Assembly: GCA_900769665.1 (NCBI GenBank)
Contig: CAAGHL010000060.1
Coordinates: forward strand, 264-64,263
Direction: 5' to 3'
DNA: 64,000 bases
From: Clostridia bacterium
Lineage (GTDB): Bacteria > Bacillota > Clostridia > Christensenellales > CAG-314
Of the stretch, positions 27,310 through 44,201 are shown piece after piece. The position numbers and the translations under genes are program-made. Within the stretch, counting starts at the first letter, position 1. The number at the start of each line of letters is the position of its first letter. The notes below the pieces were generated by a model that ran no database searches, was not told the origin of the DNA, and was given only the letters and a program-made list of their open reading frames with translations.

Positions 27310-27434
27310 CGTATTGCTTTTTTAGTGACATAAAGGGCTAATTCGATATGGATTTTGATGTAGATTGACAGCGGTTTTGCAACCGAAATTACACTACGAA
27401 AGTAGCAAAAAAATAACACGAGAGAGGTAGAAAC

Positions 27435-28887: not shown

Positions 28888-28888
28888 C

Positions 28889-29728
28889 ATGCTGAGATTT
28901 TTTACAAAGACGGCAATAGGGTACAACCATTTGCAACATGGCAAGCCTTGCCAAGACTTCTCCGCAAGCTATCACGACGAGGAACGCACCATTGTTACGG
29001 CATGCGACGGACACGGTAGTGAGGTGCATGTGCGTAGCGCCCTCGGTAGTAAATTTGCGGCGGAAGCGGTGATAAATGTATTCAAAAAAGTAACACGTAT
29101 GCTGTTTTTCCGCACAAAAACGGAAGAAGCAAACAAAAAATTGCGGTTGGAAATCTTGTGCGAATGGAATGCGCTTGTGGAACGTCACCTTGCTGAACAT
29201 CCGTTAAGCAAGGCGGAGCTGTCAACGCTGGACGAAGACAAGGTGTTTCGCTTGAAGACCGACCCGACGGTGGCGTACGGCACCACGTTGCAAGGCGCAA
29301 TGTTTTTCGGCAACAAGGTGGTGTGTGTTTCCTTGGGTGACGGCGGCTGTTTTGTAGTAAAGCGCGGTATGCTGTATCCGCTGTTCGAGGATGTCGAGGA
29401 AGAGGAAAACGTGGCAAACGTCACTTGCTCTATGTGCCAATCGGACGCATACAAACACTTGCATGTCGCCGTGTTTGATGCAAAAAGCGTGCAAGGCGTA
29501 ATAGTACTAACCGACGGACTGATAAACCCCTACCGCAACTTGGGCAACTTTGCCGAAAAGTTTGTTGCGCCCACTGTGACCAATTTGCTTGACGGTAATG
29601 CGGGCGTGGTGAATGAATTTATTACTAGGTTGGGTGCGGAATTGGGCATTGGCGACGACGTGTCGTTAGGCATTATTTTGCGAGATAACCGCACTTCTGC
29701 AAGCCGAGTCAGGGAGAAGCAAACATGA
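28889..29728 (+). CDS. PP2C-family Ser/Thr phosphatase (TerY-P-type)
   Basis: GYNHLQHGKPCQDF, ACDGHGS and VLTDGL metal-binding motifs. The start is the ATG at 28889, after GGGAGTGG; the ORF track allows 28871. Confidence 0.85.
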   Translation: MLRFFTKTAIGYNHLQHGKPCQDFSASYHDEERTIVTACDGHGSEVHVRSALGSKFAAEAVINVFKKVTRMLFFRTKTEEANKKLRLEILCEWNALVERHLAEHPLSKAELSTLDEDKVFRLKTDPTVAYGTTLQGAMFFGNKVVCVSLGDGGCFVVKRGMLYPLFEDVEEEENVANVTCSMCQSDAYKHLHVAVFDAKSVQGVIVLTDGLINPYRNLGNFAEKFVAPTVTNLLDGNAGVVNEFITRLGAELGIGDDVSLGIILRDNRTSASRVREKQT

Positions 29729-30804
29729 AGTTTCGCGAAGCATTGAAGTATTGTTTCGACAATCGCACGACGGACGACGACATTGTTGCGCCGTTTAGGC
29801 TGTATTGCAAGTTGTGCGACATGACGGACAGCGGATATGCAAACGCCAAGAAATTGCGTAACTTTTTTGCCGTGGACAAGAGGGTTGCATTGGTGGAAAG
29901 TATGGTGAAGGAAGGGGTTGCAAGCGTTGAACCATTGACGGAAAAGTATGCTCTCGTAAAGGATTTCCTGTCGCAAAAAAGTTACTACGTATTGGTTTTC
30001 CTTGTGCAAAACACGCTGTTTCCGCATTGGGACAACGATGTCGCCGAACTGAAAAACAAGCTTGTTCCGCAAAAAAAGGTTGCAGACAAACCGACGGCAA
30101 ACAATGTGGCGAAAAAGCCGACTGTAACCCGTGCGCCTACATCGGGCGGTAGCCAAAGTGGCAAAGGCAATCCCAACGGCTCGGGCAGTGGCGGTGCGGC
30201 AACGACGACAAATCAATCGACAACGCAAAGTCAATATGCAACAAGCCAAAACGCAACCACGCAATCGACAACAAGTCAAACAACATCGACCCCGACGTAC
30301 CGTTCCTCAACAAGCGGTGTGTCGTACGGCAGTTACTACCATGACTTTGCGGAAACAAACTTCGACGACGTCATTTTGCCGTTTAGGTTTGTATTTGTCT
30401 TTTTGTTGGCGGCGGTTGCCGTGGCTACGGGCATATGCGCAATATTCTTTGCCCAATATGGTTGGACGTATTGGCAGTGGGTTGTCGGCGCGGCAATTGC
30501 CGTTGTGTTGCCGTACTTGTTTTTCGAGGGCGAAAACCTGATTAACAGCATGTACGCAACCTTCCCTTTGGCGTTGGCTGTGTATGCATTTTGCATTTGT
30601 GGCGTGGTGCTCAATCACGTGTTTCGCAACGACTTTGCCTTGGTTGCCCATTGGCTGTACGGCGCAATGTTTGCAACAAGTTTTGTGGTTGCATTTGTGT
30701 ATGTAGGCGACAAGAAAAGGCGTGCGCACACAAGAATGTATCTCGTGGCGCTGTTGGTAAGCGCGGTGTTGTTCGTTGCGGAGTTTTTCGTGGATTTTGC
30801 GTAA
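29725..30804 (+). CDS. Polytopic membrane protein: N-terminal soluble domain, S/T/Q/G-rich low-complexity linker, C-terminal 4-5 TM helices
   Basis: ATGA overlap with the PP2C stop. The linker is GGSQSGKGNPNGSGSGGAATTTNQSTTQSQYATSQNATTQSTTSQTTSTPTYRSSTSG, followed by hydrophobic helices. Confidence 0.75.
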   Translation: MKFREALKYCFDNRTTDDDIVAPFRLYCKLCDMTDSGYANAKKLRNFFAVDKRVALVESMVKEGVASVEPLTEKYALVKDFLSQKSYYVLVFLVQNTLFPHWDNDVAELKNKLVPQKKVADKPTANNVAKKPTVTRAPTSGGSQSGKGNPNGSGSGGAATTTNQSTTQSQYATSQNATTQSTTSQTTSTPTYRSSTSGVSYGSYYHDFAETNFDDVILPFRFVFVFLLAAVAVATGICAIFFAQYGWTYWQWVVGAAIAVVLPYLFFEGENLINSMYATFPLALAVYAFCICGVVLNHVFRNDFALVAHWLYGAMFATSFVVAFVYVGDKKRRAHTRMYLVALLVSAVLFVAEFFVDFA

Positions 30805-30903
30805 TTCTCGACCATTGAACAAACGATTCGGACGGCAATATTTGTCGCTTACGGCCGGAAAATTCTTTACAACCAAAAGAATAAAAACAGCACGTTAAAA
30901 CAT

Positions 30904-30941
30904 CAAAAAATGATACGTATGCAAAAATTAACTACATTTTT
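30904..30941 (+). promoter_or_regulatory. Recurrent bipartite motif, copy B, 23 nt upstream of the lemA RBS
   Basis: CAAAAAATGATACGTATGCAAAAATTAACTACATTTTT. Confidence 0.5.
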
Positions 30942-30963
30942 ACAAATCTACGGAGGATAAATC

Positions 30964-31470
30964 ATGGGATTTTGGGGTTGGACGTTGACAATCATCGGGG
31001 CAATTTTGGTTGTCGTGGTGTTTGTGGTGTTGCCGATCAAGTTTTGCAACACGGTACTTCGCAAAAAAGAAGAAATCGAAAAAGCAAAAAGCCGAGTGCG
31101 CATTGCCAAGGCTAAGTACTTGCAAGTTTTGCGCAAAATGGGCACAACGCAACAGGAAGCTTACGACGCTCACGGCGGCGCCTACAACAAGGCAAACAGT
31201 GGCAGAGCCGGTTATTTTATTAGCGGCGCAATAGGCAACATCGAAAGCGAGTTTGACAAAACGCAACAAGTGGTGTTGACCTTGGCGGACGACTACCAAG
31301 CGGCGCAACAATCGCTCAACGAGCTTGTCAACGACTACAACGTGTACATCACAACCTTTCCGCGCGTGATATTTGCCAAGCTGTTCCGCTACCAAAAGGA
31401 AAAGTACGTCGACTCCGCCAATTTGGACGCCAGTACCGAGCTTCGCGGCTTCGACGACAACGACATTTAG
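30964..31470 (+). CDS. lemA: LemA-family membrane protein
   Basis: N-terminal TM helix and a GGAGGA RBS. The size of about 170 aa and YNVYITTFPRVIFAKLF fit the LemA Y-N-x-I-x2-FP-x3-A motif. Confidence 0.75.
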   Translation: MGFWGWTLTIIGAILVVVVFVVLPIKFCNTVLRKKEEIEKAKSRVRIAKAKYLQVLRKMGTTQQEAYDAHGGAYNKANSGRAGYFISGAIGNIESEFDKTQQVVLTLADDYQAAQQSLNELVNDYNVYITTFPRVIFAKLFRYQKEKYVDSANLDASTELRGFDDNDI

Positions 31471-31574
31471 CCGACAACCGCGACACCCAATGCCACCTAA
31501 CGTGGACGCAACCAAACGTTGACGGGTAGGGCAGGTGGAGTAAAAATTAAAAGTTTATACTAAGGAGAAATGCT

Positions 31575-31901
31575 ATGAAACTAATTTGTGCGTTAATCAA
31601 ATGGGGCATCCGAGTTGCGTTCTTTTACTTCGTTATGATGCCGACGGCTTATGCCACCAAGTCCATCATTTTGTTGGTCGCCGAGCTTATTGCCAGTGGC
31701 ATATCGCTAAGCCGTTACGAGTCGGACGAAATCTTCCAAGTAATCACGGGTTGGGGTCCGTTCGGCGATTTCGGTCACTACGAGTACACGGATCACACAG
31801 GCAAAAGAGTTCTCGGTTGGCTGTTTTGGCTCGGCGCAATGGCTTGTCGCATATTCATGATTTACTGCATGGCTAATCCGCAAATCTTGTTGGCGGAGTA
31901 A
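31575..31901 (+). CDS. Small membrane protein (108 aa, 3 predicted TM)
   Basis: AAGGAGA RBS and hydrophobic segments. I recognise no family. Confidence 0.6.
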   Translation: MKLICALIKWGIRVAFFYFVMMPTAYATKSIILLVAELIASGISLSRYESDEIFQVITGWGPFGDFGHYEYTDHTGKRVLGWLFWLGAMACRIFMIYCMANPQILLAE

Positions 31902-32083
31902 ACCTCAACCGCCGCTTGTTACCATTGCTAACCGCGCGCTCACATCTTTATTCCTTCTCCCTCCCCCACCACGCAACGCAGTGCCAAAGCGCATTTGCAA
32001 CGCTTGTTATATCACATTCAACGCAAAACCAAGCCGTTACAGCCGCATTTTTGCTTAATTTGCGACAAATTTCGTCAAACCTA

Positions 32084-32113
32084 TTGACAATGGGGAGGGG
32101 CGTGTATTATAAT
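32084..32113 (+). promoter_or_regulatory. Sigma-A-type promoter upstream of the WYL regulator
   Basis: TTGACA (32084-32089), an 18-nt spacer, then TATAAT (32108-32113). It would give a 5' leader of about 185 nt. Confidence 0.45.
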
Positions 32114-32303
32114 ACACATACTTGGTTTTGTAGTCTATTGTATATATTATTAGCAAACCAATGTTGTTAGAGGGATTGAAAATGATTGTCTTGTATGGCA
32201 AACTAGATATGTAGTGTCGCGGGACGGGCAGTAGCCCGGCTCCGTTTTCGCATACCTTTTTGCTGTCGCAATCGTCGTGCGCATTGCGCTTTTGAGGAGA
32301 ATT

Positions 32304-33260
32304 ATGAACAAAACGGCAAATTGCCTAAAAATGTTGCAGTATCTCAACTCCGGCAGAGTGTACAAAATCAGCGAACTCGCCGAGCGGTTGGAAACAAACC
32401 CACGCAACATCATCGAATACCGCAACGAGTTGGAAAACGCCGGCTACGTCATCATCAGCATAGCAGGAAAGTACGGTGGCTACAAGTTGGACGAAACTTC
32501 CACGTTGCCCACGGTCAAGCTCACTGCGGATGAGAAGCTCGCCCTTGTAGAAGGTGCGGGCTATTTGGCTGCCCGAAACGACTTTTTGTACAAGGCGCAG
32601 TACGAGTCGGCAATGAGCAAGGTGTATTCGGCGGTCAACCACACGGACAATCGCGAGGTATTGCCCACGGTGATTACGCGCTTCCCCCTTGCCATGAGTG
32701 AGGAAGAAATCTCCCGTCGCTACAATGCGGTGCAACGATGTATTTACGGACGTCTGAAACTGAAAATCACCTACCTTTCCGCCAAAAACGAGCAATCGCA
32801 ACGCACAATCCACCCCTACAATTTGTATATGTACAACAATGCGTGGTTTGTCATTGCGTTTGACGAGTTGCGCGGCGAGGTAAAGTACTTCAAGCTAAAC
32901 CGCATAAAGGCGTTAGAAGTGCGTGACGGCGAGCGGTTTAGGCGGTTGCTTTCGTACAAGGCAAGCGACTACGTGGACCGCTTCGGCATGAAAAACAACG
33001 GCGAGTGGTACGAGTTTGAGCTGGAACTGACCGGCAAGTACGCAATGTTGGTGCAGGAGCGCATTTATGGGCGCGACCAAGTGGTGACACCGATCGATGC
33101 GGAGCGCACGCGACTGAAAGTGACCATGCAAAACAAAACCGACGTCGTGTCCTTCGTGATGGGCTTCGGCAAGTATTGCAAAGTGCTTGAACCGGAGTGG
33201 TTGAAAGAGGAAGTTGCCGAAAGTTGTAAACTGATTTTGGATGGACTGAATAGTGGGTGA
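32304..33260 (+). CDS. HTH-WYL transcriptional regulator (YafY/CapW/BrxR-like architecture)
   Basis: N-terminal wHTH (LKMLQYLNSGRVYKISELAERLETNPRNIIEYRNELENAGYVI). Central WYL-like block (IHPYNLYMYNNAWFVIAFDE). C-terminal WCX-like extension. GAGGAG RBS before 32304. Confidence 0.85.
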   Translation: MNKTANCLKMLQYLNSGRVYKISELAERLETNPRNIIEYRNELENAGYVIISIAGKYGGYKLDETSTLPTVKLTADEKLALVEGAGYLAARNDFLYKAQYESAMSKVYSAVNHTDNREVLPTVITRFPLAMSEEEISRRYNAVQRCIYGRLKLKITYLSAKNEQSQRTIHPYNLYMYNNAWFVIAFDELRGEVKYFKLNRIKALEVRDGERFRRLLSYKASDYVDRFGMKNNGEWYEFELELTGKYAMLVQERIYGRDQVVTPIDAERTRLKVTMQNKTDVVSFVMGFGKYCKVLEPEWLKEEVAESCKLILDGLNSG

Positions 33261-33301
33261 GAGGGAACAAGCAGGGAGATTGTTAGTGAATTTGTGATTT
33301 G

Positions 33302-33329
33302 TAAAAAAATCCCGACCGAAGTCGGGATT
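33302..33329 (-). terminator. Intrinsic terminator for the minus-strand small lipoprotein gene; it may also stop the WYL transcript
   Basis: ATCCCGAC-CGAA-GTCGGGAT hairpin. An A7 run on the + strand gives a U-tract on the - strand. Confidence 0.75.
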
Positions 33330-33332
33330 AGT

Positions 33333-33518
33333 TTAGGCGATGAGGTTGTACGAAGGAACAACAAATCCTTCAAAGTCGTCGTCGATTGTCGGCGGATTGG
33401 TGTCCGTTGGAGTTTTGTTGTCGTCTTTCTTGTCCGTATCTTCTCCACAAGCAGCCAAGCAAGTGAAGCAAGCTACTAAAAGAGCCAAAACCAACAAAAG
33501 ACAAATCAGCTTTTTCAT
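33333..33518 (-). CDS. Small secreted lipoprotein (61 aa)
   Basis: MKKLICLLLVLALLVACFTCLAAC lipobox followed by an acidic, proline-rich tail. It has its own terminator. Confidence 0.6.
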   Translation of the reverse strand: MKKLICLLLVLALLVACFTCLAACGEDTDKKDDNKTPTDTNPPTIDDDFEGFVVPSYNLIA

Positions 33519-33612
33519 AATGAATCTCCCTTGTGTTAATTTAGCTATGCTGAATTAGCTATACGTTTATTTTATCAATATTGTAGTCAATTGTCAAGTA
33601 GGAGAAAACAAA

Positions 33613-36600
33613 ATGACAAGAGAAAAAAGAACAAGAGTTATGGCTGTGGCTATCCTTGCCGTAGTAATGGTATGCAGTTGTATATTCGCGGCATTTGCAG
33701 ACGGCTTTGGTGGAAATACCGCAAATGCGCTGTCCATTACGCAAGAAGAAGCTTCGCAATCTTATGTGGACAGCTTGCGCTACGGATACAATGTTACGGC
33801 GGGTAAATCGATATACGAAATCGATGCTTTTCAAGATGCCGCACCTATATTGAAACCATTTAGCGAAGGTTTGTACAAGTATGTTAACAAGCGTGAGGTT
33901 AATACCAAGAGTGATGCAGGAAACTACGAGGCAAATAACGCTTTAAGCATTGCTAAACAGTACAGTAGAACATTGAGTGGTGGCATAGAAGCTAATGTAA
34001 GGGTAGTCCAAGCCGACCTTAATGCAACATTTGATTTGAGTAATAGATTTGCAAAGACGTATGATGAGTACTATGCGGTTTATTATCAAGAAATCACACG
34101 TAATACCTACGTGATAATGGAATCCGTAGATTTGCGTGATTACCTCACGGACGAATTCAAGTCCGACATGGCTAAGATTAAGACAGAAACAGATGCTTCC
34201 AATTTTATACAAAGATACGGAACTCATTTGTTTACAGGCTTAAAGTGGGGCGGTATGTTGCAAGTGTCCAACTACCAACAAACACAAAGTAGAACCGAAC
34301 GTATTTCTACTGACATTGCTTTGTCGGCTAAAATAGGTAATACAATTGCGGCAAACGGAAGTTTTAGTTTTGCCGAAAACGTGGAAGCGCAAGAAAACTC
34401 TAGTAACAAAACCAGTCGTTACAGATGTACCCTATACGGAGGAAAAGCTGTTACTTCCGCTACTGTAGACCAAGTGTTCAAATACAATTCTGGGGAACTT
34501 AGCGGAAAAGGAAACTATGTATACAAAGAATGGGTTGACTCTATCAATGAAAACCAAAATCTTGCAATAATCGGTAGACCAGACAATGCAAGGTATGTGC
34601 CCGTGTGGGATTTATTGCCGGACGGAACAGAGTATTTGGCGGCTAAAAGATGTTTGCGCAACGCCTATACTACTCTTTGTGGAGATCAATATGATGAGTT
34701 TTTGAAAAAGTATCCTACCACAAGCCGCGAAATAGGTGAATCCGGTGTTGAAACAGGCGTCGGAACAATTGACGGATACACAATGACATATGCCGGCAAT
34801 ACATCTTACAATCAATTGAGTAAAAGCGCGACAGAATGCTCTGTTTACCGCGGCTCGACAATATCAATGAATTGTACCACTGATACCATACCTGCCGGTA
34901 TGAAAAATTGGAAGGTGGAAGGCAATCCCGATTGGGTGGAAGTTGTTGACTCAGTATCGGGCATATTCCGCATAAAAGGTAATGCTATAGCCGGACGTAC
35001 ATTTAATTTACAATTGTACAGTGGTGATACATTAGCAAAAGACCTCGGTGAAATTTTTGTTGTAAAATCCGCTAGTTTCTCAGGCGGTGAAGGTACTGAA
35101 GAAAGCCCATATATATTGTCTACAAAAGAGGATTTGTTAACTTTGTCTGCGGACAGCAGTTTGTGGGAAAAATCTTATCGACTTTCAACGGATATTGATT
35201 TGGAAAACACAAGTTGGTCGCCGTTAGGTGTTAGTGACAACCTATTTGGCGGTACGTTTGACGGCAATCATTGTACAATTTCCAATGTCAAGATAAATTC
35301 ACCTCGAGATAAAGCTGTTGGATTGTTTGGGTACATCGACAAGAATGCAACGATAAAAGACTTGTTTGTCAACAACGTTACTATCGGATACGAAGATAAG
35401 CAAATGTTGGAGTCTGACGTATCTTATGCGGGCGGATTGGTTGGCAATAGCAAAGGTACATTGGAAAACTGCCTTGTGGACAACTTGTGTATAAATGCTC
35501 GTTGTGTAATCTCAAACTCGCAAAACAATCTTTCCGTGGGCGGCTTGGTAGGAACAGCAAGCGGTACTATCAAACAATGTGGAGTAAGAAATTGTGCCAT
35601 TATTTCCGGATATTTGATGGATGAATTGGTTGGCGACCCTAATGCAGATGCTAATAAAGTAAAGGATTCTATAAATGAATTTGGAAAAAATCCTAAAACA
35701 GCAATTGTGTATGTAGGTGGATTTATAGGCGAAGCATCAGATTGTAAAATTTCCAACTGCTATGTGAATAGCGTTGCAAAATTGTCTTCTCAAGCTGCTA
35801 CGTATACAACAACGGTAAGTGTTGGCGGCTTGTGTGGATATGTAGGAACGTCAACTAAAGTTGATACTTCAGTCGTTGGGGAGATTACTAAATTTCTTTC
35901 CTCTGTAGTTTCAAATAATTCAAGAAAATGTAAATCTTCTTTTGTGGGAGATAAAACAAATACACTCGAAAAAGATGCCGTACCTACTTTTAGTAAGTGT
36001 TATGCTCAAAAGGTCGATGGTATCGAATCCGGTGTTGACAGCGGATGTACCGTACTGGGAGAAATTACATGGTCGGCAGTTGTAAATGAAAATGGTTTGA
36101 GCAAAACCATTTGGTGTGCAGAAAAAGGAACTCAATTCCCGATTTTGATTAAACAAGAAATAGGGACTGAAGCCTTGAGCTATGACGTTTCAAAAGCAAA
36201 AACCGAATTTTATTATGGTGAAAGTTTTGATATCGCCGGCGTGTCGGTTAGCGGAACGTATCGTAGCAGTGGAGAAGAAATCCAACTTGATGTGTTCTCT
36301 TATGATAGTTCTGCTTACAATCCAATGCAGGAGGGTACATACAAAATCAAAATTTATGCAATGGGCAAAGAAACGGCGTATGAAGTCGTTGTACGCAAAA
36401 TTAAGGTTGTAAACATCAAAGTGGAAGCAATAGACCCGTCCAAGACGTACTATGTGGACGAAACAATTGACGTAAACGACTACAAAGTTAGTTACGTGTT
36501 GGAAGACGGATCGCTGCTCGACCCTACTGCCGAAAAATTGTCGTATGTGCAATATCCTACAGGTAAGATTGTAGCCGACAATACTCGTTATACATATGCG

Positions 36601-38286
36601 CTTGGTGACAACGAAATCATATTCAACTGCGGTAGCATGAGCGCAAGTACGATAGTGGAAGGTATAGAAAAAGTTGTATCGAGTATCCGCATTGGCAAAA
36701 ATCCCAAGAAAATGAGCTACATTGCTGGTGAAACGTTCAACCGTGAGGAAATGGAAGTAATCGCCAACTATACCGACGGAACAAGCGAAATTGTGGACGA
36801 CAAGGAATTGGAAATAATCGGTGAAAGAATTTCCGAAGGTGAAAACGAAGTCATCATTTCGTACGGCGCATACAAGACTGCAGCTGTAGTAGTGCAAGGC
36901 GAGCCTGCACCGAGCGAAACTTATATTGTTAAGTTTGTTGACTATGACGGAAGTTTGATTTCCGAAAAAACCTATACAAGTGGCTCTTCAGTGAATGTGC
37001 CATCCAATCCTACAAGAAGTAGTGACAATACGTACAAATATACATTTAGCGGTTGGTCGCCTAATGTGGCGACGACATGTACGGCAAACGCTACGTACAC
37101 AGCGCAATACACGCAAACGTACATGGAGTATACCATTGTATTTGTGGGCGAAGACGGCAGAGAAATTGCTCGAAACACGTACCACTATGGTGATACCGTT
37201 ACAGCACCGGAATTGCCCGACAAAACAATTGGCGGAGTAAAGTATGTCGGTAGTTGGGATAGCGATTTTGTTGCTATATGTAACGGAAACAAGACTTACA
37301 CGGCAAAGTATACCAAGAGTGGTTCGGACGTCGGAGATGGTGAGTACGCGATAGTATTTAAGTACGATGACGGCACGATTATCGAAACTCAACATCACAA
37401 CTTTGGCGAAGATGTTGTTGCACCTATCAATGTGACAAAAGCATCCGACAATGTGTATAGTTACAAGTTTGTCGGTTGGGATAAGACTGTCAAAAACGTA
37501 TGTATAGCCAATGCGGAATACATTGCAGTGTTTGAGAAAATCTACATTGAGTATACGATTAAGTTCGTAGATTCGGACGGAACGATAATTTCGTCCAATA
37601 CATACCACTATGGCGATACCGTGACCGCACCTAAATTGCCCGACAAAACAATTGACGGCGTAAAATACGTCGGAAGTTGGGGTAGTGATTTTGTTGCTAT
37701 ATGTAACGGAAACAAGACCTATACTGCACAATATACAAAGAACGGTTCCGATAGTGGTTCTGGTGAGTATACGGTAGTGTTTAAGTATGATGACGGAACT
37801 ATTATCGAAAGTCAACATCACGATTTCGGTGATGACGTCGTAGCGCCTACCAATGTAACAAAAGAATCTGATAAAGTGTACAGCTACAAATTTGTCGGTT
37901 GGGATAAGACTGTCAAAAACGTGTGCATAGCCAATGCAGAATACATTGCAGTATTTGAAAAGGTGTATATCGAATATACAGTCGAATTTGTAAACTATGA
38001 CGGGACTGTTATTTCGTCCAAAACATATCATTACGGTGACGAACTGATTTTGCCTGAAGAGCCGACACGCGAAGATACTAAAAACACCGCCTACAAGTTT
38101 GTCGGTTGGGGAACTGTGCGTAGTTTGGTTGTGGACGACGTAACTTATACTGCTCAATATACAGAGTCGCCTATTGCCGAAAAAGGCGTAATGACAATAA
38201 AAACTTGGCTGTTTGTTGTAATTATCCTTGCCCTTGCAATATCCTTTATATGGGCATTGGTTTATACAATCAAGTGGGGATTATGA
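33613..38286 (+). CDS. Giant surface protein: signal peptide, MACPF pore-forming domain, GLUG/beta-helix region, Ig-like domains, Listeria-Bacteroides (Flg_new) repeats, C-terminal TM anchor
   Basis: MACPF core RYGTHLFTGLKWGGML (Y-G-T-H-x7-G-G) with N-terminal YGYNVTAGKS. GLUG motifs GGLVGNSKG, VGGLVGTASG and VGGFIGEAS. Repeats ending Y-x-Y-x-F-x-GW. Terminal hydrophobic helix WLFVVIILALAISFIWALVY. Confidence 0.85.
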   Translation: MTREKRTRVMAVAILAVVMVCSCIFAAFADGFGGNTANALSITQEEASQSYVDSLRYGYNVTAGKSIYEIDAFQDAAPILKPFSEGLYKYVNKREVNTKSDAGNYEANNALSIAKQYSRTLSGGIEANVRVVQADLNATFDLSNRFAKTYDEYYAVYYQEITRNTYVIMESVDLRDYLTDEFKSDMAKIKTETDASNFIQRYGTHLFTGLKWGGMLQVSNYQQTQSRTERISTDIALSAKIGNTIAANGSFSFAENVEAQENSSNKTSRYRCTLYGGKAVTSATVDQVFKYNSGELSGKGNYVYKEWVDSINENQNLAIIGRPDNARYVPVWDLLPDGTEYLAAKRCLRNAYTTLCGDQYDEFLKKYPTTSREIGESGVETGVGTIDGYTMTYAGNTSYNQLSKSATECSVYRGSTISMNCTTDTIPAGMKNWKVEGNPDWVEVVDSVSGIFRIKGNAIAGRTFNLQLYSGDTLAKDLGEIFVVKSASFSGGEGTEESPYILSTKEDLLTLSADSSLWEKSYRLSTDIDLENTSWSPLGVSDNLFGGTFDGNHCTISNVKINSPRDKAVGLFGYIDKNATIKDLFVNNVTIGYEDKQMLESDVSYAGGLVGNSKGTLENCLVDNLCINARCVISNSQNNLSVGGLVGTASGTIKQCGVRNCAIISGYLMDELVGDPNADANKVKDSINEFGKNPKTAIVYVGGFIGEASDCKISNCYVNSVAKLSSQAATYTTTVSVGGLCGYVGTSTKVDTSVVGEITKFLSSVVSNNSRKCKSSFVGDKTNTLEKDAVPTFSKCYAQKVDGIESGVDSGCTVLGEITWSAVVNENGLSKTIWCAEKGTQFPILIKQEIGTEALSYDVSKAKTEFYYGESFDIAGVSVSGTYRSSGEEIQLDVFSYDSSAYNPMQEGTYKIKIYAMGKETAYEVVVRKIKVVNIKVEAIDPSKTYYVDETIDVNDYKVSYVLEDGSLLDPTAEKLSYVQYPTGKIVADNTRYTYALGDNEIIFNCGSMSASTIVEGIEKVVSSIRIGKNPKKMSYIAGETFNREEMEVIANYTDGTSEIVDDKELEIIGERISEGENEVIISYGAYKTAAVVVQGEPAPSETYIVKFVDYDGSLISEKTYTSGSSVNVPSNPTRSSDNTYKYTFSGWSPNVATTCTANATYTAQYTQTYMEYTIVFVGEDGREIARNTYHYGDTVTAPELPDKTIGGVKYVGSWDSDFVAICNGNKTYTAKYTKSGSDVGDGEYAIVFKYDDGTIIETQHHNFGEDVVAPINVTKASDNVYSYKFVGWDKTVKNVCIANAEYIAVFEKIYIEYTIKFVDSDGTIISSNTYHYGDTVTAPKLPDKTIDGVKYVGSWGSDFVAICNGNKTYTAQYTKNGSDSGSGEYTVVFKYDDGTIIESQHHDFGDDVVAPTNVTKESDKVYSYKFVGWDKTVKNVCIANAEYIAVFEKVYIEYTVEFVNYDGTVISSKTYHYGDELILPEEPTREDTKNTAYKFVGWGTVRSLVVDDVTYTAQYTESPIAEKGVMTIKTWLFVVIILALAISFIWALVYTIKWGL
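37120..37965 (+). repeat. Near-identical 423-bp (141-aa) tandem duplication inside the MACPF gene
   Basis: Unit 1 (37120-37542) and unit 2 (37543-37965) encode YTIVFVGEDG...IAVFEKIYIE and YTIKFVDSDG...IAVFEKVYIE with only scattered substitutions. A diverged third unit follows. Confidence 0.9.
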
Positions 38287-40619
38287 GAACAGTATCTATT
38301 CTATTAAGTTGTATTTTGACAGCTTTGCTTGTGTTGGCTGCGTTTGTTCCCGTCGTCGCATTTAGTGACGACGGTGAGCAAACTTCGTCCGATCAACCGC
38401 TTACAAACGACGACATAAACATCTATTTCTATCCGTTGCATACTGACAGCAAAGGAAATTTGGTGCAAAGCGATGCGGAGGGCGACAGCTATATTATTAC
38501 TGTCGGTGATGTCGAAATACTTGTTGACGGCGGCTCGGACGTTAATGCGGCAACGGCAATCATGAGCCAAATGAAGAAGTTTGTTAGCACGGACAAACAC
38601 TGGGACTACATCATTGTCACGCATGCGGACTCGGATCATATAGGGGCGTTTACGGGCAAAAATGGTGGTATATTCAGTTTGTTTTCCGACGAACAAGAAG
38701 ATGAAAAACTATCACTTGGTACGTTAATCGACTTTGACATCGAACAAGACGAAACGGCGAAGGCAACATATCCACAGTATAACAGCTTATTTTCGACCAT
38801 TGTTTGTGATAAATACCGACAGTTTCGAGATTCGACCGTGAGAAACAAAAAAGCAACGTATTATACAGCTTCTCAATGTTGTTGGAAGCAACGCGGTGTC
38901 GAACGGTCAAAGTGCAAAAATGCAACGGACTATTTCCCTCTGTCGGACAAGGTTGCTTTGCGTATATTGTACAACAAATACAATGACAACAAGTTCAATC
39001 CCAACACCGATGTTAGCTCAGGTGATAAAAACAACTTGAGCGTTTGCTTTACGCTGGAGTATACCAAGGATAACGGCGTAGTGGAACAATTTTTGTTTAC
39101 AGGTGACTTGGAAGAGTACGACAGCACAAAGGGGTACAGTCAGATATTCGGTGAAACGGAACTTGTCAAAAACAATCCCCAACTTGCAGGCGGCAAGATA
39201 AGTGCTATGGCAAACAAAGAGTACGGCAATGGTGTGATTTTTTACAAGGCAGGACACCACGGCAGTAGAACATCGTCGTCGGAATCGTTTGTCGATGTTA
39301 TTCGCCCGAGATACGTTGTTATCCCTGCAGTTGCCGGTAACAATTCGTACAAACACGAGCCAAATTCCGACGAGTCGTTTCCTTCATCGGCGGTAATGAA
39401 AAACTTGTTTAAGTATACCGATTATATCTACATACCTGCCGTGGCGGAATACGACAGCAACGGAAACAAAACCAAAACAAACGATTACTATGGGTACATT
39501 ACCATAGGTTATTCGGGCGAAGAGTTGAACGTACTTACGTCAAACAATTGCGATGCGAACAATAAGCCGAGTTTGATACAGGATACCGAATGGTTTTCCG
39601 AGTACCGTGAGGCGGCGTTGAATACGTTTGTGTTTGACGGGTACAAATCCGAAACGGAAGCAATACTCGGCGACTGCACGTTGGTTAAGCTCGGGCACGT
39701 CGAGATACTGATCGATTGTGGCAACTGGGCAATGAACGGCGTTAGTGACGACAACACAATACTCATTGACAAAGTGAAGAAGTACTGCGTTGACGGCGTA
39801 TTGGAGTACGTTGTGATTACATCTCCGTATCGAAATGCTCTGTCGGGCATGGTGGATTACGTTGACGGAAATTCCAATGTTTTGCGGAAAGGAATTTTTA
39901 GCGAATTTAAGGTGGAAAACCTAATTGACTACGGAAAAGGCAACTACATTTCAAAACTGGGAAGTTTGCCTAAGTACGAAAAGTACACGAGTGACAAAGC
40001 AAATGTGGTTGACGAGGCGCATTACTACTCGGCGCAAAAATATTGCAAAACAACGCCTAAGACGTTGAATGTGGCTCCGAATTTGGATTTGACTATCCTT
40101 GCTAATCCCAATTGCGGCGACAATGACGAAGGAGCAGTGTCGTTGACGGTGGAATACTTCGGCAAAAAGCTTTTGTTTGTGGGTGGAAGGATAACAGAGG
40201 AAGGCGAAACGGCAATTGCTAGATACAACGACTTAAACAATGTCGTGTTTTACAGGGTAAACGATTACGGATTTGAACTCTGCGCTTCGCAAACGCTACT
40301 CAATGCAATCAATAGCGGTAGCGATAAGCTGTTTATCGTCGTAAACTCGATCGCCAACGGAGAGTACTCGGGCAAACAAATTGTAACAAACAATTTTTGC
40401 AGTAGAATTATCAACAAAACGCCATATTGCTATGTAACGACAGAACAAAAAACAGTTGGCGGACGTAAACAATACAGCGAGATATGCGGCGATATTTGCT
40501 TTTCTATTACAAATAAGGCAAATAAGCTGAGCTATTCGCTTGTTGGTAGTCGTAGTAATGTTATTCTATCTGAAAGTCAATACTTTAGAAATCTCAACCC
40601 GTTTGGGCGTTTTAATTAG
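38283..40619 (+). CDS. Secreted protein with two tandem ComEC/Rec2-type metallo-beta-lactamase-fold domains
   Basis: ATGA overlap with the MACPF stop, and a signal peptide. Domain 1 has GDSYIITVGDVEILVDGG, IIVTHADSDHIG and KAGHHGS. Domain 2 has GDCTLVKLGHVEILIDCG, but VITSPYRNALSG replaces the His motif. Confidence 0.8.
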   Translation: MRTVSILLSCILTALLVLAAFVPVVAFSDDGEQTSSDQPLTNDDINIYFYPLHTDSKGNLVQSDAEGDSYIITVGDVEILVDGGSDVNAATAIMSQMKKFVSTDKHWDYIIVTHADSDHIGAFTGKNGGIFSLFSDEQEDEKLSLGTLIDFDIEQDETAKATYPQYNSLFSTIVCDKYRQFRDSTVRNKKATYYTASQCCWKQRGVERSKCKNATDYFPLSDKVALRILYNKYNDNKFNPNTDVSSGDKNNLSVCFTLEYTKDNGVVEQFLFTGDLEEYDSTKGYSQIFGETELVKNNPQLAGGKISAMANKEYGNGVIFYKAGHHGSRTSSSESFVDVIRPRYVVIPAVAGNNSYKHEPNSDESFPSSAVMKNLFKYTDYIYIPAVAEYDSNGNKTKTNDYYGYITIGYSGEELNVLTSNNCDANNKPSLIQDTEWFSEYREAALNTFVFDGYKSETEAILGDCTLVKLGHVEILIDCGNWAMNGVSDDNTILIDKVKKYCVDGVLEYVVITSPYRNALSGMVDYVDGNSNVLRKGIFSEFKVENLIDYGKGNYISKLGSLPKYEKYTSDKANVVDEAHYYSAQKYCKTTPKTLNVAPNLDLTILANPNCGDNDEGAVSLTVEYFGKKLLFVGGRITEEGETAIARYNDLNNVVFYRVNDYGFELCASQTLLNAINSGSDKLFIVVNSIANGEYSGKQIVTNNFCSRIINKTPYCYVTTEQKTVGGRKQYSEICGDICFSITNKANKLSYSLVGSRSNVILSESQYFRNLNPFGRFN

Positions 40620-40722: not shown

Positions 40723-40751
40723 TTGACATTCGGTAATACGGGTGTTATACT
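40723..40751 (+). promoter_or_regulatory. Near-consensus sigma-A promoter with extended -10
   Basis: TTGACA (40723-40728), a 17-nt spacer ending TGT, then TATACT (40746-40751). The predicted TSS coincides with the first P1 nucleotide of the riboswitch. Confidence 0.75.
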
Positions 40752-40878: not shown

Positions 40879-40909
40879 AACCGACGCTCCATCCGTCGGT
40901 TTTTCTTTT
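40879..40909 (+). terminator. Intrinsic terminator (riboswitch expression platform)
   Basis: AACCGACG-CUCCAUC-CGUCGGUU hairpin followed by UUUUCUUUU. Confidence 0.8.
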
Positions 40910-41134: not shown

Positions 41135-41211
41135 CGCGGGGTAGAGCAGTCTGGTAGCTCATCGGGCTCATAACCCGAAGGTCGTTGGTTCAAATCCTTC
41201 CCCCGCAACCA
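41135..41211 (+). tRNA. Initiator tRNA-fMet (anticodon CAT), CCA-encoded
   Basis: 77 nt. The 5' CGCGGGG paired with a 3' CCCCGCAACCA end gives the C1:A72 mismatch. Three G:C pairs (GGG/CCC) flank the CUCAUAA anticodon loop. T-arm GGTTCAAATCC. The sequence is close to the E. coli initiator as I recall it. Confidence 0.95.
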
Positions 41212-41217
41212 TTAAAG

Positions 41218-41242
41218 AAGCAGTCTTCGGACTGCTTTTTTT
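41218..41242 (+). terminator. Intrinsic terminator after tRNA-fMet
   Basis: AAGCAGTC-TTCG-GACTGCTT hairpin followed by a T-run. Confidence 0.85.
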
Positions 41243-41340
41243 ATATCTATTCGGGTTATGCTTTGCCGCAAGGCAAAGGTTGCTCCTGAGCAACAGCCCG
41301 ATCGGGCTCCTAGTTGAGCCTTGGCGAAACCAACGTAGTT

Positions 41341-41384
41341 ATAACCCGAAGGTCGTTGGTTCAAATCCTTCCCCCGCAACCATT
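41341..41384 (+). repeat. 44-bp exact duplicate of the tRNA-fMet 3' half (att-like direct repeat / truncated pseudo-tRNA)
   Basis: ATAACCCGAAGGTCGTTGGTTCAAATCCTTCCCCCGCAACCATT is identical to 41170-41213. No matching 5' acceptor or D-arm lies upstream. Confidence 0.9.
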
Positions 41385-41742: not shown

Positions 41743-42453
41743 ATGAGAAATATTGCCATAGTAGAGGACGACAAAAATTCTTCCAAACTCCTTAGCGAGT
41801 ATTTGGATAAATTTTCAAAAGATCACGATTGCAAATTTACGACTTCGACTTTTTTTACTGCCGGTGACTACATCGAAAACTGTCGTTCAGGTTTCGATAT
41901 TGTCTTTATGGACATCGAATTACCTGACGGCAACGGCATGGAATCTGTCCGTCGCATACGTGAATTAGGCGTGGAATCGCTTGTGATTTTCGTGACTAAC
42001 CTTGCCAAGTATGCTGTTCAGGGCTACGAGGTTAAAGCTTTTGACTTTATCGTCAAACCTGTCAATTACTACAATTTCGAGCTGAAACTTTTAAGCGCAT
42101 TGGAGTGTCTCGACAAAAACGGCGACAAGGAGTTTTGGGTAAAAACAAAAGAAGGAAAAGTGATTTTGCGTGGTTCCGATATTACTTACGTTGAAGTTTT
42201 GCGGCACTATTTGACCTATCATACAAAAAACGGAGATTATTCCGTATTAGGATCAATCGGCGAAGCTGCGGAACTTTTGAAGGAATGTAGATCTTTTGTC
42301 TTTTGTAATAGGTGTTACTTGGTTAATCTCCGTTATGTTACGCAGATTAAAAAGTCGACTGTGACCGTAGCGGGGCAGGAGTTGCAAATTTCCAGACAAA
42401 AGAGAGCAAATTTTTTGAAAGAACTCAACGATTACTTCGGCGGAGGAAAATAG
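41743..42453 (+). CDS. LytR/AlgR-family response regulator (REC + LytTR DNA-binding domain)
   Basis: REC motifs (IAIVEDD, DIVFMDIELPDGNG, FVTNLAKYA) and a C-terminal LytTR-like region (ITYVEV...CNRCYLVNLRYV). Confidence 0.9.
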   Translation: MRNIAIVEDDKNSSKLLSEYLDKFSKDHDCKFTTSTFFTAGDYIENCRSGFDIVFMDIELPDGNGMESVRRIRELGVESLVIFVTNLAKYAVQGYEVKAFDFIVKPVNYYNFELKLLSALECLDKNGDKEFWVKTKEGKVILRGSDITYVEVLRHYLTYHTKNGDYSVLGSIGEAAELLKECRSFVFCNRCYLVNLRYVTQIKKSTVTVAGQELQISRQKRANFLKELNDYFGGGK

Positions 42454-42454
42454 T

Positions 42455-43789
42455 ATGTTTTCCAATCTACTTTTTATCATCGAAATATTTATCTGCGGAC
42501 ATTTGTTTGCATTTAGATTAAAACATCGAAACAAGTACGCATTGCGTCTTGTTTCCAGTGCGGCGGTTTGTATCGGCGTAGGTGCTTTTCTCGGACTTTT
42601 CTTTGTCGAAAACGTTTTTTACTCGTTTTTTGTTTATATGGCACTTTTTGCCGTGTCGATACTTGCGCTGTGGTTTACTTACGACGAGCCGATAGTTAAT
42701 ATCTTTTTTTGTGGCATTGCGGCGTATACGACTCAACACTTCGCTTACCAATTTGCAAACCTTGTGTTTACACTCGTTATGACAGGGGCAAGTCCTTTGC
42801 TGGGTATTTACCACATTAAGTTTTTCGATATTACCAAGTTGAACGCCAACTTTTTGCTTGTTGCGTCGATTTACGTAATGTGTTACTTTACGATTTACGG
42901 ATTAGTCTACATTATCTTTGGCAGGCGTATCGAAAAACAAGGCGGATTGGAGATAAAAAACAAAAATATTTTGGTGTTGTTGGGCTTTTGCCTTATTCTA
43001 AACATTGTATTAAACTCCGTCATGCTGTATCTTGGTGACCATTTGCCCTTTGTCAACTCGGTGATTTTTTACATATACATCTGTTTGTGTTGTTTTTTGT
43101 TGTTACAGTGGCAATTCGAGCTTAGTTACTCCAAGAGTTTAAGCACGGAGCTCGATTTTGTAAAAAAACTGCTTCAACAGGAAAAAGAACACTACAAATT
43201 GTTTCGCGACAACATACAAATCATCGACATCAAATGTCACGACATGAAACACCAAATTCGTCAAATCGGTATAAACAAGGGTTTGGACAGTGAAACGGTG
43301 GAAGAAATTGAAAAGTCGATTTCCATATACGATTCGGATGTAAAAACCGACAATGAAGCTCTTGACGTGATTCTTGCCGAAAAAAGTCTTAAATGTATAA
43401 AGTATAACATCACTTTCAGTTGTATGGCGGATGGAAAAAGGCTGAATTTCATGAAAGACTCCGACGTATATTCTCTGTTCGGCAATGCGCTAGATAATGC
43501 AATCGAAGCGGTAGTAAAGCTCAAAGACAAATCGCAAAGAGTAATCGGTCTTAAAGTATGCGCAGTAGGGGACATGACGTCGATAAACGTGAAAAACTTT
43601 TACGACGGAAAAATCGAGTTCAACAAGGAGGGTATTCCCGATTCGACCAAACTCGACAAGAGCTTTCACGGATTCGGACTAAAAAGTATAGCCATGATTG
43701 TGGAAAAGTACGGCGGTTCGTTGTCTATCGTGGCGCATGACGAAATATTCAACCTAAATATACTTTTGCCCGGTCAAACGTCAAAATGA
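42455..43789 (+). CDS. AgrC-like (HPK10) GHKL sensor histidine kinase with a 6-7 TM sensor domain
   Basis: Polytopic N-terminal half. H-box region IKCHDMKHQIRQI. N-box LFGNALDNAIEA. G-box GFGLKSIAMIVEKYGG. The start lies 1 nt after the response regulator stop. Confidence 0.88.
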   Translation: MFSNLLFIIEIFICGHLFAFRLKHRNKYALRLVSSAAVCIGVGAFLGLFFVENVFYSFFVYMALFAVSILALWFTYDEPIVNIFFCGIAAYTTQHFAYQFANLVFTLVMTGASPLLGIYHIKFFDITKLNANFLLVASIYVMCYFTIYGLVYIIFGRRIEKQGGLEIKNKNILVLLGFCLILNIVLNSVMLYLGDHLPFVNSVIFYIYICLCCFLLLQWQFELSYSKSLSTELDFVKKLLQQEKEHYKLFRDNIQIIDIKCHDMKHQIRQIGINKGLDSETVEEIEKSISIYDSDVKTDNEALDVILAEKSLKCIKYNITFSCMADGKRLNFMKDSDVYSLFGNALDNAIEAVVKLKDKSQRVIGLKVCAVGDMTSINVKNFYDGKIEFNKEGIPDSTKLDKSFHGFGLKSIAMIVEKYGGSLSIVAHDEIFNLNILLPGQTSK

Positions 43790-43915
43790 TTACGAAAATT
43801 GTACGAAACAATACCACTGGGGCATAATTTGATACGTAACGTGCAAACGCTATTGACAGCGATTGCACGTTTTTTTATACTTAGCTTGCATGCAAAACAA
43901 CTTGGAGGTGACTCG

Positions 43916-44194
43916 ATGGAAAACGAAGAAAAGGCAAATATTCGCAAATCATGGAGGTTGCCGTGGGGCATATTCGCGGCGGTAATTGCAATGATTTGGT
44001 CGTTTGTGACGATAGGTATAATTGCAGGGGTTGTGATGGTAACGACGGGCTTCGGAAAGACGTATTCCATAACAAACGGCTTGTTCGACACGGGCTGGCT
44101 GATAGCTTTGTACGTGGCGGAAGTAGTACTTATTGCAGGCTTTGTAGCGTGTATTATTTTGCGTTGCAAACAAGCAAAAGAGAAACAGGAGTAA
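43916..44194 (+). CDS. Small membrane protein (92 aa, 2 TM)
   Basis: GGAGGTG RBS and two long hydrophobic helices. I recognise no family. Confidence 0.6.
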   Translation: MENEEKANIRKSWRLPWGIFAAVIAMIWSFVTIGIIAGVVMVTTGFGKTYSITNGLFDTGWLIALYVAEVVLIAGFVACIILRCKQAKEKQE

Positions 44195-44201
44195 GAAACA
44201 A

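Follow-up and report, generated by a model that had tools for sequence, protein, structure and literature searches.

What does a gut bacterium do with a giant surface protein that carries a MACPF domain, and why is the gene for this protein followed directly by one for a secreted enzyme of the ComEC-type metallo-beta-lactamase (MBL) fold? The question is raised by a 64,000-nucleotide (nt) stretch of a Clostridia bacterium genome (assembly GCA_900769665.1, contig CAAGHL010000060.1), referred to below as the window, in which open reading frame (ORF) 1 encodes the MACPF protein and ORF2 the MBL protein. MACPF pore formers are central to animal immunity; in bacteria, a few insecticidal toxins and the BSAP proteins of Bacteroidales are the main known cases. 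A first-pass annotation, made from the sequence alone, gave coordinates and lengths of the two ORFs, as well as an ATGA overlap between them (ATG of ORF2 at 38283, TGA of ORF1 at 38284-38286), that proved exact. ORF1 and ORF2 belong to a conserved, co-inherited two-gene module of uncultured gut Firmicutes. We propose tentatively, at somewhat short of an even chance, that the two proteins form a two-part extracellular effector used against another cell, for killing, nutrient capture, or both. In full-text searches of the literature, no description of a MACPF protein paired with an MBL protein, or of a MACPF protein with a dockerin, was found.

The MACPF and MBL genes are inherited as a pair

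Orthologues of the tandem MBL protein were drawn from a species-representative genome collection and from metagenome assemblies. At 12 of 12 independent orthologous loci with readable flanks, a giant MACPF gene adjoins the tandem MBL gene (Table 1), which answers the concern, voiced in the first-pass annotation, that the pair might not be conserved elsewhere. At other loci, the partner genes overlap by up to 23 nt or are separated by up to 37 nt; hence, the translational coupling by which their 1:1 pairing had initially been described stands for the window and is rejected as a family trait. The tandem form of the MBL protein was met solely beside MACPF genes, and single-domain secreted ComEC-like MBL proteins are widespread in the same taxa without a MACPF gene. 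Loci with only single-domain MBL genes gave no MACPF match, with the exception of L063, where weak tblastn matches to MACPF (E 1.6e-11 to 4.9e-11) were not recovered by the family hidden Markov model (HMM) even at E 1e-3. Four candidates for two-domain MBL proteins (L082, L049, L059, and L064) were rejected, being of another architecture or two adjacent single-domain genes, and none of them has a MACPF gene. At L173, a distant 806-amino-acid (aa) member of a MACPF subfamily is clustered with a WYL gene, a 560-aa MBL gene, and a MacB-type ABC transporter. The gene downstream of the MACPF gene in L172 was also considered as an MBL gene and rejected; it encodes a repeat lipoprotein resembling the middle gene of L003, and the contig ends thereafter.

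Table 1. Partner genes in the window and at the orthologous loci
Locus	MACPF protein	MBL protein	C-terminus of MACPF protein	Remark
Window	1557 aa	778 aa	Hydrophobic helix	
L002	1433 aa	715 aa	Dockerin_1	
L003	1294 aa	839 aa	Hydrophobic helix	One additional gene in between
L004	Incomplete	791 aa		MBL gene first
L009	1259 aa	750 aa	Hydrophobic helix	
L161	1583 aa	756 aa	Hydrophobic helix	
L163	1353 aa	809 aa	Hydrophobic helix	
L165	1991 aa	765 aa	Dockerin_1	
L166	1790 aa	751 aa	Dockerin_1	
L168	1530 aa	740 aa	Dockerin_1	
L169	1328 aa	790 aa	Hydrophobic helix	
L170	Truncated, HMM-confirmed	785 aa	Hydrophobic helix	
L171	1724 aa	757 aa	Dockerin_1	

The partners co-diverge. The more similar two loci are in their MACPF domains, the more similar they tend to be in their MBL proteins (pairwise identities, Mantel r = 0.72, p <= 0.0002), a correlation that is partly driven by the close pair L166/L171. 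The pair is also replaced as a whole cassette within one species. The flanks of L161 and L003 are 99.3% identical at the nt level over 2405 bp upstream and 98.7% over 1263 bp downstream, and the cassettes between them (2406-9785 in L161, 3502-12572 in L003) are unalignable, with protein identities of 33% for MACPF and 30% for MBL. The L003 cassette includes an additional gene between the MACPF and MBL genes, encoding an 816-aa lipoprotein with G-x-x-G-x-D-G repeats. In L004, the pair occupies the position that it has in the window, downstream of the WYL gene, in reversed order and with about 31% identity; the kinase, vWA, PP2C, and WYL proteins encoded around it share 40-69% identity with those of the window.

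Within the species of the window, the pair is dispensable and strain-variable. Three contigs (L174, L175, and L176; 97-99% nt identity) fuse position 24446 to 39898 at a TTTA microhomology. The segment that is missing from them contains the genes for an IetA-like AAA protein, a Ser/Thr kinase, two vWA proteins, a PP2C protein, a 359-aa toastrack-like protein, LemA, a 108-aa protein, the WYL regulator, a small lipoprotein, and the MACPF protein, and the deletion also takes ORF2 codons 1-538. The resulting 241-aa C-terminal ORF2 remnants, with a GTG start, are common in the 90% cluster, and many same-species contigs carry only the remnant. The region from 24 to 49 kb of the window is a hotspot of structural variation. 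L174 (12615-12624 compared with window 42130-49222) is also devoid of the 3' part of a LytTR gene, a histidine kinase gene, a GH3 gene, and most of a 690-aa ORF, and another strain variant has an insert of ~1.6 kb, with a 470-480-aa gene, in place of window 24001-24279.

The block had been described by eye as more AT-rich than its flanks, and the GC and GC3 (GC at third codon positions) profiles agree. GC per kb is 0.38-0.45 across 33-44 kb, compared with mostly 0.46-0.55 in the flanks, and GC3 is 0.384 for the MACPF gene and 0.50 for the MBL gene, compared with 0.56-0.72 for 20 upstream genes and 0.52-0.69 for downstream genes to 60 kb. The GC3 of the pair is far below that of the flanks in the window and in L009, which is consistent with import of the cassette from a donor of lower GC content; in most other loci, the pair and its flanks agree. 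A second low-GC block is present at the right end of the window (60310-64000; GC 0.40-0.43, GC3 0.35-0.47).

The MACPF protein

The MACPF domain of ORF1 is genuine and, as judged from its sequence and predicted structure, looks pore-competent. Failure in profile or structure searches had been named at the outset as a possible objection, and the domain passed both. Pfam (PF01823) matches aa 137-315 with 51.3 bits against a cut-off of 21.5, and the MACPF domains of the partner proteins at other loci score 40-45 bits. The motif YGTHLFTGLKWGG (aa 202-214, nt 34216-34254; it reads YGTH-L-FTGLKW-GG) agrees with the MACPF signature Y/W-G-T/S-H-F/Y-x6-G-G except for Leu at the F/Y position, and in an alignment of 38 relatives, there is little or no variation at Y202, G203, T204, H205, G213, and G214. 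The AlphaFold2 model built on this alignment (pLDDT 85.4) has the bent central sheet with two helical clusters alongside that defines the MACPF/CDC fold. Its Foldseek matches are Mpf2Ba1, GNIP1Aa, Plu-MACPF, Bth-MACPF, C9, perforin, and MPEG-1 (PDB entries 8b6v, 6fbm, 2qp2, 3kk7, 6cxo, 3nsj, and 6u2l; E 1e-12 to 1e-8), of which Plu-MACPF and GNIP1Aa are also reached by the sequence profile of the family. Two predicted membrane-inserting regions, TMH1 and TMH2, show an alternating hydrophobic/polar pattern (family-averaged moment at 180 degrees of 1.01 and 1.02, compared with 0.36 for a control helical region), as would be expected for segments that refold into membrane-spanning amphipathic hairpins.

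The family to which this domain belongs is large. An exhaustive phmmer search of 1.8 billion cluster representatives (50% identity clusters) gave 279 MACPF relatives at E <= 1e-3 and 80 at E <= 1e-30; a word-indexed protein search with the domain was insensitive, with one match for the single sequence and two for an 11-sequence profile. The relatives are mostly 1200-2000 aa long with the MACPF domain at the N-terminus. Taxon labels of relatives are Eubacteriales, Clostridiales, Clostridia, or Bacilli, and NCBI names relatives only "MAC/perforin domain-containing protein" or "hypothetical protein". An animal-gut metagenome is the origin in all source records naming one. In the viral, phage, and plasmid collections IMG/VR, INPHARED, and PLSDB, no relatives of the MACPF domain were found.

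Such an origin, together with the direct accessibility of eukaryotic membranes, brings up the question of whether ORF1 is a host- or eukaryote-directed cytolysin. The target would then be an animal, protist, or fungal gut cell, and the nuclease would handle released or trap DNA. The nearest solved folds are indeed insecticidal or eukaryote-directed (the insecticidal pore formers Mpf2Ba1 and GNIP1Aa, and Plu-MACPF). However, the fold similarity is remote (13-17% identity), and the turnover of allelic cassettes within a species resembles that of interbacterial toxins. A eukaryotic target seems quite unlikely to us, and it would really be a variant of the proposed two-part effector with another target.

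The remaining parts of ORF1 are also as first annotated: Pfam recognizes the GLUG, Ig-like, and List-Bact repeats, and the C-terminal transmembrane (TM) helix is seen in the hydropathy profile, whose peak (KD19 = 2.85) is inside the final 26 residues. The N-terminus, as read from the translation, has a basic n-region, a 20-aa h-region, and a site between AFA and DG. Downstream of the MACPF domain, a Pfam Glug match (27 bits, cut-off 20.5) and a match of the family profile to the GLUG-type "putative IgA1 protease" PDB 3n6z (E 3.8e-15) mark a region that is probably a beta-helix stalk. Two Big_3 domains (54 bits; aa 1030-1091) and three Flg_new repeats (56 bits; aa 1455-1517) follow, and a 423-nt internal tandem repeat (repeat family D1) lies within the stalk at 37115-37837.

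As judged from the C-termini and downstream genes, tethering is universal among the partner MACPF proteins. Seven of 12 end in a hydrophobic helix, and the other five in a type I dockerin (Table 1). Downstream of exactly the five dockerin loci lies a cohesin gene (L168) or a member of a family of lipoproteins of ~150-220 aa. The cohesin is clear in L168 only; the small lipoprotein of L171 scores a sub-threshold 21.8 bits (cut-off 24.1), and a profile of four lipoprotein sequences gives weak cohesin matches in PDB (E 0.016-0.4). We regard the assignment of the family as a cohesin as probable. Interchangeable anchor types had not been noticed in the first-pass annotation, and neither had the WYL regulator or the wider strain-variable block.

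Since GLUG, Big_3, and Flg_new are typical building blocks of adhesins, ORF1 might be a giant adhesin whose MACPF domain binds without perforating. ORF2 would then digest extracellular DNA for nutrition or for remodelling of biofilm matrix, and the two proteins would be linked only by co-regulation. Certain MACPF proteins are said to be non-lytic, and the occurrence of secreted single-domain ComEC-like MBL proteins without MACPF in the same taxa is in line with such a role. On the other hand, the family as a whole conserves the MACPF signature and the beta-amphipathic TMH regions, and the tandem MBL form was encountered only beside MACPF genes. Strict pairing, co-divergence, and cassette replacement between 99%-identical flanks point to diversifying, conflict-type selection and not to housekeeping. 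We regard a non-lytic adhesin as improbable.

The tandem MBL protein

By its sequence, the second protein of the proposed effector consists of an internally duplicated ComEC-type MBL domain, one copy of which is predicted to be dead. Pfam recognizes Lactamase_B at aa 67-124 only, and NCBIfam ComEC_Rec2 (TIGR00361) reaches 25.9 bits, against a cut-off of 190, at aa 322-360 in the motif V region. The two-domain architecture, already proposed in the first-pass annotation, holds because the profiles of the N-half and C-half align with each other (hhalign probability 100%, E = 4e-46, 298 columns) and because the C-half alone matches single-domain ComEC-like MBL genes across its full length (E about 1e-20). 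ORF2 has one N-terminal hydrophobic segment and no further ones, and its AlphaFold2 model has a pLDDT of 88.7 and a pTM of 0.89.

Conservation of the motifs was followed in an alignment of ORF2 with 30 full-length homologues (29-49% identity) from uncultured Clostridia-type bacteria. In domain 1, which had been said to keep HADSDH and GHHGS and does so at aa 114-119 and 324-328, residues H114, D116, D118, H119, N250, D275, H325, and H326 are invariant in 31/31 sequences. The motifs align residue by residue with those of solved ComEC chains (THPDADH, LNDQSV, LFTGDLEE, and GHHGS), and none of the ComEC ligands is missing (motif II HxDxDH, motif III Asn, motif IV Asp, motif V HHGS). Two residues tell the C-terminal domain of ComEC from its nearest solved relative, CbpE: ComEC has Asp where CbpE has the second motif II His, and Asn where CbpE has the His of motif III (Silale et al., PMC8579336). 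Both distinguishing residues are present in domain 1. The ComEC domain is a Mn2+-dependent phosphodiesterase with DNA endo- and exonuclease activity (PMC8579336; PMC12455585). The best fold match of ORF2 is the ComEC beta-lactamase-like domain 9ic4 (E 2e-14, target TM-score 0.78), followed by ELAC2 and Pce/CbpE, and ComEC chains are matched by the ORF2 profile in PDB with E 3.5e-11 to 7e-8. The loss of the metal motif from the second domain is likewise as first described, with VITSPYRNALSG aligned to motif II. Motifs II-V are replaced by ITSPYRNALSG, EGAVSL, FVGGRITE, and VNDYGF in ORF2 and are gone in all 31 sequences; only motif I is kept.

Two assignments of the whole protein were rejected. 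ORF2 is not a ComEC competence protein because it has neither the competence channel domain nor the OB fold and its score is below the TIGR00361 cut-off (26 compared with 190 bits). The domain arrangement of ELAC2 does not apply, as the fold match is only local (TM-score 0.24, root-mean-square deviation ~25 Å). Matches to the MBL protein in IMG/VR are distant (24-34% identity). Three cysteines of the dead domain (Cys465, Cys479, and Cys502; aa 465-502, window ~39675-39788) are each shared by at least 90% of the 31 sequences. The active domain has an invariant Cys255 and a "QCCW" pair that agrees with the family consensus. Disulfide bonds or a structural metal site are conceivable roles of these cysteines.

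The generic diester bis-pNPP is another substrate of the ComEC domain (PMC8579336), and a different substrate for ORF2 can be envisaged. It might act as a phosphodiesterase on surface polymers or head groups (teichoic acids, phosphocholine decorations, and phospholipids), stripping the envelope of the target or of the producer itself so that the MACPF domain reaches the membrane. Pce/CbpE, the pneumococcal teichoic-acid phosphorylcholine esterase, is the next-best relative both by sequence (E 2e-4) and by fold (TM-score 0.68), ORF2 is acidic and without a DNA-binding module, and such an activity would explain how a MACPF protein acts on walled Gram-positive neighbours. However, the ligands of domain 1 are of the ComEC type (Asp in motif II, Asn in motif III) and not the HxHxDH plus His of CbpE, ComEC chains outscore CbpE by 5-7 orders of magnitude, and choline-binding or wall-binding repeats are absent from ORF2. 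Envelope stripping is, in our judgement, unlikely.

Genes around the pair

The features of the locus are collected in Table 2. The WYL/WCX gene adjoins the pair in 8/14 loci and is likely its local regulator. A 14-nt tandem repeat (33534-33561), which may be an operator, lies in the promoter region common to ORF1 and the divergent gene for a small lipoprotein. Comparable lipoprotein genes of 44-100 aa occupy the same position in L161, L163, L166, and L171; that the lipoprotein could be a CD59-like self-protection factor is an analogy and pure speculation.

Table 2. Positions of the features of the locus in the window
Feature	Position	Strand	Basis
Segment missing from other strains of the window's species, 15,451 bp	24447-39897	.	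Contigs L174, L175, L176
HTH-WYL-WCX transcription regulator, directly upstream of ORF1	32304-33260	+	Pfam WYL 59 bits, WCX 43 bits
Small lipoprotein, 61 aa, LAAC lipobox, acidic disordered tail, divergent from ORF1	33333-33518	-	Translation
ORF1, surface-tethered giant MACPF protein, 1557 aa	33613-38286	+	ORF list, translation; Pfam MACPF, Glug, Big_3, Flg_new
ORF1 signal peptide, aa 1-29	33613-33699	+	Inferred by reading the translation
MACPF domain, aa ~40-375	33730-34737	+	Pfam, AlphaFold2 model, Foldseek, beta-amphipathic moment
TMH1, predicted membrane-inserting region, aa 108-150	33934-34062	+	Helical cluster of the model; amphipathicity
TMH2, predicted membrane-inserting region, aa 225-265	34285-34407	+	Helical cluster of the model; amphipathicity
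GLUG-repeat region, approximately aa 489-800	35077-36012	+	Pfam Glug at aa 700-719; family-profile match to PDB 3n6z
Big_3 Ig-like domains and Flg_new (Listeria-Bacteroides) repeats, remainder of stalk	36190-38172	+	Pfam
C-terminal TM anchor of ORF1, aa 1531-1553, then 4 residues	38203-38271	+	Hydropathy
ORF2, secreted tandem ComEC-type MBL protein, 778 aa	38283-40619	+	Translation; AlphaFold2 model
MBL domain 1, aa 45-445, predicted active	38415-39617	+	Motifs invariant in 31 family members; ComEC alignment; fold match
Domain 1 motif I, LVDGG	38520-38540	+	31-sequence alignment
Domain 1 motif II, THADSDH	38619-38639	+	HADSDH = aa 114-119
Domain 1 motif III, Asn250	39030-39050	+	31-sequence alignment
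Domain 1 motif IV, FTGDLEE	39096-39116	+	31-sequence alignment
Domain 1 motif V, GHHGS, aa 324-328	39252-39266	+	31-sequence alignment
MBL domain 2, aa 446-778, predicted degenerate pseudo-enzyme	39618-40616	+	hhalign; family-wide motif loss; C-half matches
Domain 2 motif I, kept, LIDCG	39708-39728	+	Alignment
Domain 2 motif II position, ITSPYRNALSG instead	39816-39848	+	Alignment
tRNA-Met	41135-41211		

Further upstream (window 24844-30804), an IetA-like AAA ATPase (PADLOC, 133 bits), a Ser/Thr kinase, two vWA proteins, a PP2C protein, and the 359-aa protein are encoded; Pfam finds Pkinase, VWA (twice), and PP2C_2 in one gene run, and the positional counterpart of the 359-aa protein in L004 and L173 has a weak toastrack (DUF4097) match. 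Kinase/vWA/PP2C and AAA or proteasome-like genes recur near the pair in about six loci, with inverted orientation in L168. The set is reminiscent of a TerY-P-like phospho-switch, but no PADLOC model is matched by the vWA and PP2C proteins. Other neighbours are of the conflict type: in L168 (3426-5021), genes for an LHH-domain toxin and for SUKH immunity immediately precede the MACPF gene; TIR_2 and DarT genes lie upstream of WYL-MACPF in L172 (1-3588); and ABC transporters are within or beside the cluster in L161, L003, and L173. The LytTR/histidine-kinase pair of the low-GC block was rejected as a conserved partner; among 160 loci, there is one further LytTR match (L061), with no MACPF gene there.

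With such neighbours, the region might be taken for an intracellular anti-phage defence island, in which MACPF and MBL proteins would be abortive-infection effectors under kinase/vWA/PP2C/AAA/WYL control. Besides the IetA-like gene and the TIR and DarT genes of L172, the WYL gene matches CRISPR-associated WYL models, and the N-terminal motif region of ORF2 matches the MBL effectors of DRT, Lamassu, and Avs systems, although the matches of ORF2 are only generic ones to the motifs. Yet both proteins bear N-terminal export signals, and ORF1 is built for display, with its stalk and its TM or dockerin anchor. There is no PADLOC match for the MACPF domain and no TerY-P match, and the absence of relatives from the viral, phage, and plasmid collections also speaks against this role, which we consider very improbable. 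Nor do the PADLOC matches support assignment of the pair to a known defence system. Searches of the same three collections gave no support for phage, plasmid, or prophage carriage of the pair.

A tRNA with an att-like scar had been put forward as a sign of horizontal acquisition. The tRNA-Met and a perfect 44-nt copy of its 3' end (41341-41384) do exist, but the copy belongs to a 171-nt tandem unit (window 41170-41384) made up of the tRNA-Met 3' end and a spacer, and the pair lies outside the repeats. Strains of the same species have 1, 2, or 3 copies of the unit, irrespective of the presence of the pair (L174 11293-11661; L175 8529-8553). No integrase gene was found near the pair, and no tRNA was found in 8 other MACPF-MBL loci scanned (11-22 kb each). 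Given the variable tandem repeat, the lack of an integrase, and deletion breakpoints with microhomology far from the tRNA, a tRNA-integrated island was rejected. Between ORF2 and this tRNA, a purine riboswitch aptamer (RF00167, 40741-40839; 39.1 bits, cut-off 37) is preceded by a near-consensus promoter (40723-40751), the second hexamer of which overlaps the first aptamer bases, and is followed by a terminator hairpin (40879-40901). There is no plausible ORF between the riboswitch and the tRNA-Met promoter, and the element has the look of an orphan riboswitch or of a small RNA.

Proposed mechanism and comparison with known systems

As regards pore formation, substrate, target cell, and regulation of the two-part effector, we infer the following course of events. 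ORF1 would be exported and remain attached to the producer cell through its C-terminal helix; in relatives, a dockerin on a cohesin-like lipoprotein would serve as the anchor. The stalk of ~1100 residues (GLUG, Big_3, and Flg_new) would hold the N-terminal MACPF domain away from the cell surface. Upon meeting a foreign membrane, the MACPF domains would oligomerize, and the two helical clusters would be converted into amphipathic beta-hairpins, which would result in a large pore. ORF2 would be co-expressed with ORF1 and secreted as an intramolecular pseudo-dimer of a ComEC-type phosphodiesterase/nuclease half, probably Mn2+-dependent, and a dead copy, which may be retained for the binding of substrate or partner. 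It is proposed to degrade the nucleic acid of the perforated cell, via entry through the pore or as the contents leak, and the outcome could be killing (antagonism), scavenging of nucleotides or phosphate, or both. The neighbouring WYL regulator probably turns the module on.

In favour of this proposal are the conserved pairing, the co-divergence and joint exchange of the partners, the features of a pore-competent MACPF domain, the ComEC-type ligands and fold of ORF2, the universal tethering, the conflict-type neighbours, and the strain-variable, dispensable nature of the pair. Several points weigh against it. Some bacterial MACPF proteins, e.g., Plu-MACPF, reportedly showed no lytic activity, and a thick Gram-positive wall would block a MACPF protein. 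The MBL fold also serves non-nuclease phosphodiesterases, with CbpE/Pce as the second-best relative of ORF2, and ORF2 itself is acidic (isoelectric point 4.99) and has no recognisable DNA-binding module such as the OB fold of ComEC. A cognate immunity gene is not evident in the window. Moreover, the reverse survey, from MACPF to MBL, comprised two additional loci only, one of which ends at the contig end.

The combination of a pore former with an enzyme has precedents, and these are the closest to the module in function. Streptolysin O (SLO) and the NAD-glycohydrolase of Streptococcus pyogenes, encoded in the nga-ifs-slo operon, are known for cytolysin-mediated translocation. In this system, as well as in that of perforin and granzymes, a MACPF/CDC pore former is in an operon with, or acts with, a secreted enzyme on the perforated cell, as is proposed for ORF1 and ORF2. 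Unlike in the streptococcal system, ORF1 is a true MACPF protein tethered by a long stalk, ORF2 is a tandem ComEC-type MBL and not an NADase or protease, and there is no evident immunity gene. The module could even be a bacterial equivalent of perforin and granzyme. The folded 83-kDa tandem-MBL nuclease would then pass through the tethered MACPF ring into a contacted cell, the dead domain would be the adaptor that docks on the pore or stalk, the swappable cassettes would set target specificity, and display would be timed by the WYL regulator in concert with the co-deleted kinase/vWA/PP2C/AAA genes. This elaboration is rather doubtful.

The BSAP-1 to -4 proteins are MACPF proteins of bacterial gut commensals that act in interbacterial killing and are strain-variable, with allelic replacement at the locus. 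ORF1 shares with them its origin in gut bacteria and a strain-variable locus subject to allelic replacement. BSAPs, in contrast, are smaller, diffusible or vesicle-borne, Gram-negative, and encoded beside a replaced receptor gene, whereas ORF1 is an anchored 1557-aa protein of Firmicutes, and its neighbour is an MBL gene, not an outer-membrane protein or lipopolysaccharide gene. The closest topology is that of MPEG1/perforin-2, one of the fold matches, in which the pore-forming domain points away from the anchoring membrane because the MACPF domain is N-terminal and the TM anchor C-terminal, as in ORF1. However, MPEG1 is a eukaryotic immune protein with no long repeat stalk and no enzyme partner.

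As far as ORF2 is concerned, the C-terminal nuclease domain of ComEC shares motifs II-V with it, is the best match in sequence and fold, and is extracytoplasmic, but ORF2 is a free secreted protein without competence channel or OB fold and is duplicated, with one copy dead. ELAC2, the long form of RNase Z, is likewise a tandem duplication of an MBL nuclease that forms a pseudo-dimer with one half devoid of catalytic motifs; there, it is the N-terminal half that is dead, and the enzyme processes tRNA inside the cell. Pce/CbpE, the second-best solved relative, likewise comes from a Gram-positive bacterium and acts outside the cell as a phosphodiesterase with the MBL fold; it differs from ORF2 in its metal-ligand set, its choline-binding repeats, and its single domain.

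Biological significance

This analysis defines a sizeable uncharacterised MACPF family of gut Firmicutes, with about 280 clusters at 50% identity, whose examined members are always surface-tethered and whose examined giant-form members adjoin a dedicated ComEC-type hydrolase. From its sequence, the MACPF-MBL pair looks like a so far undescribed device of two parts, a weapon or a means of feeding. Alleles with the natural deletion or with a swapped cassette offer ready comparisons for the ecological effect of the pair in metagenomic time series. If the proposed perforation and digestion of another cell is true, it would represent a new mode of contact-dependent antagonism or predation in Gram-positive bacteria, the second case, after SLO-NADase, in which the genes of a pore former and of its enzyme cargo are linked, and a new extracellular role of the ComEC nuclease fold.

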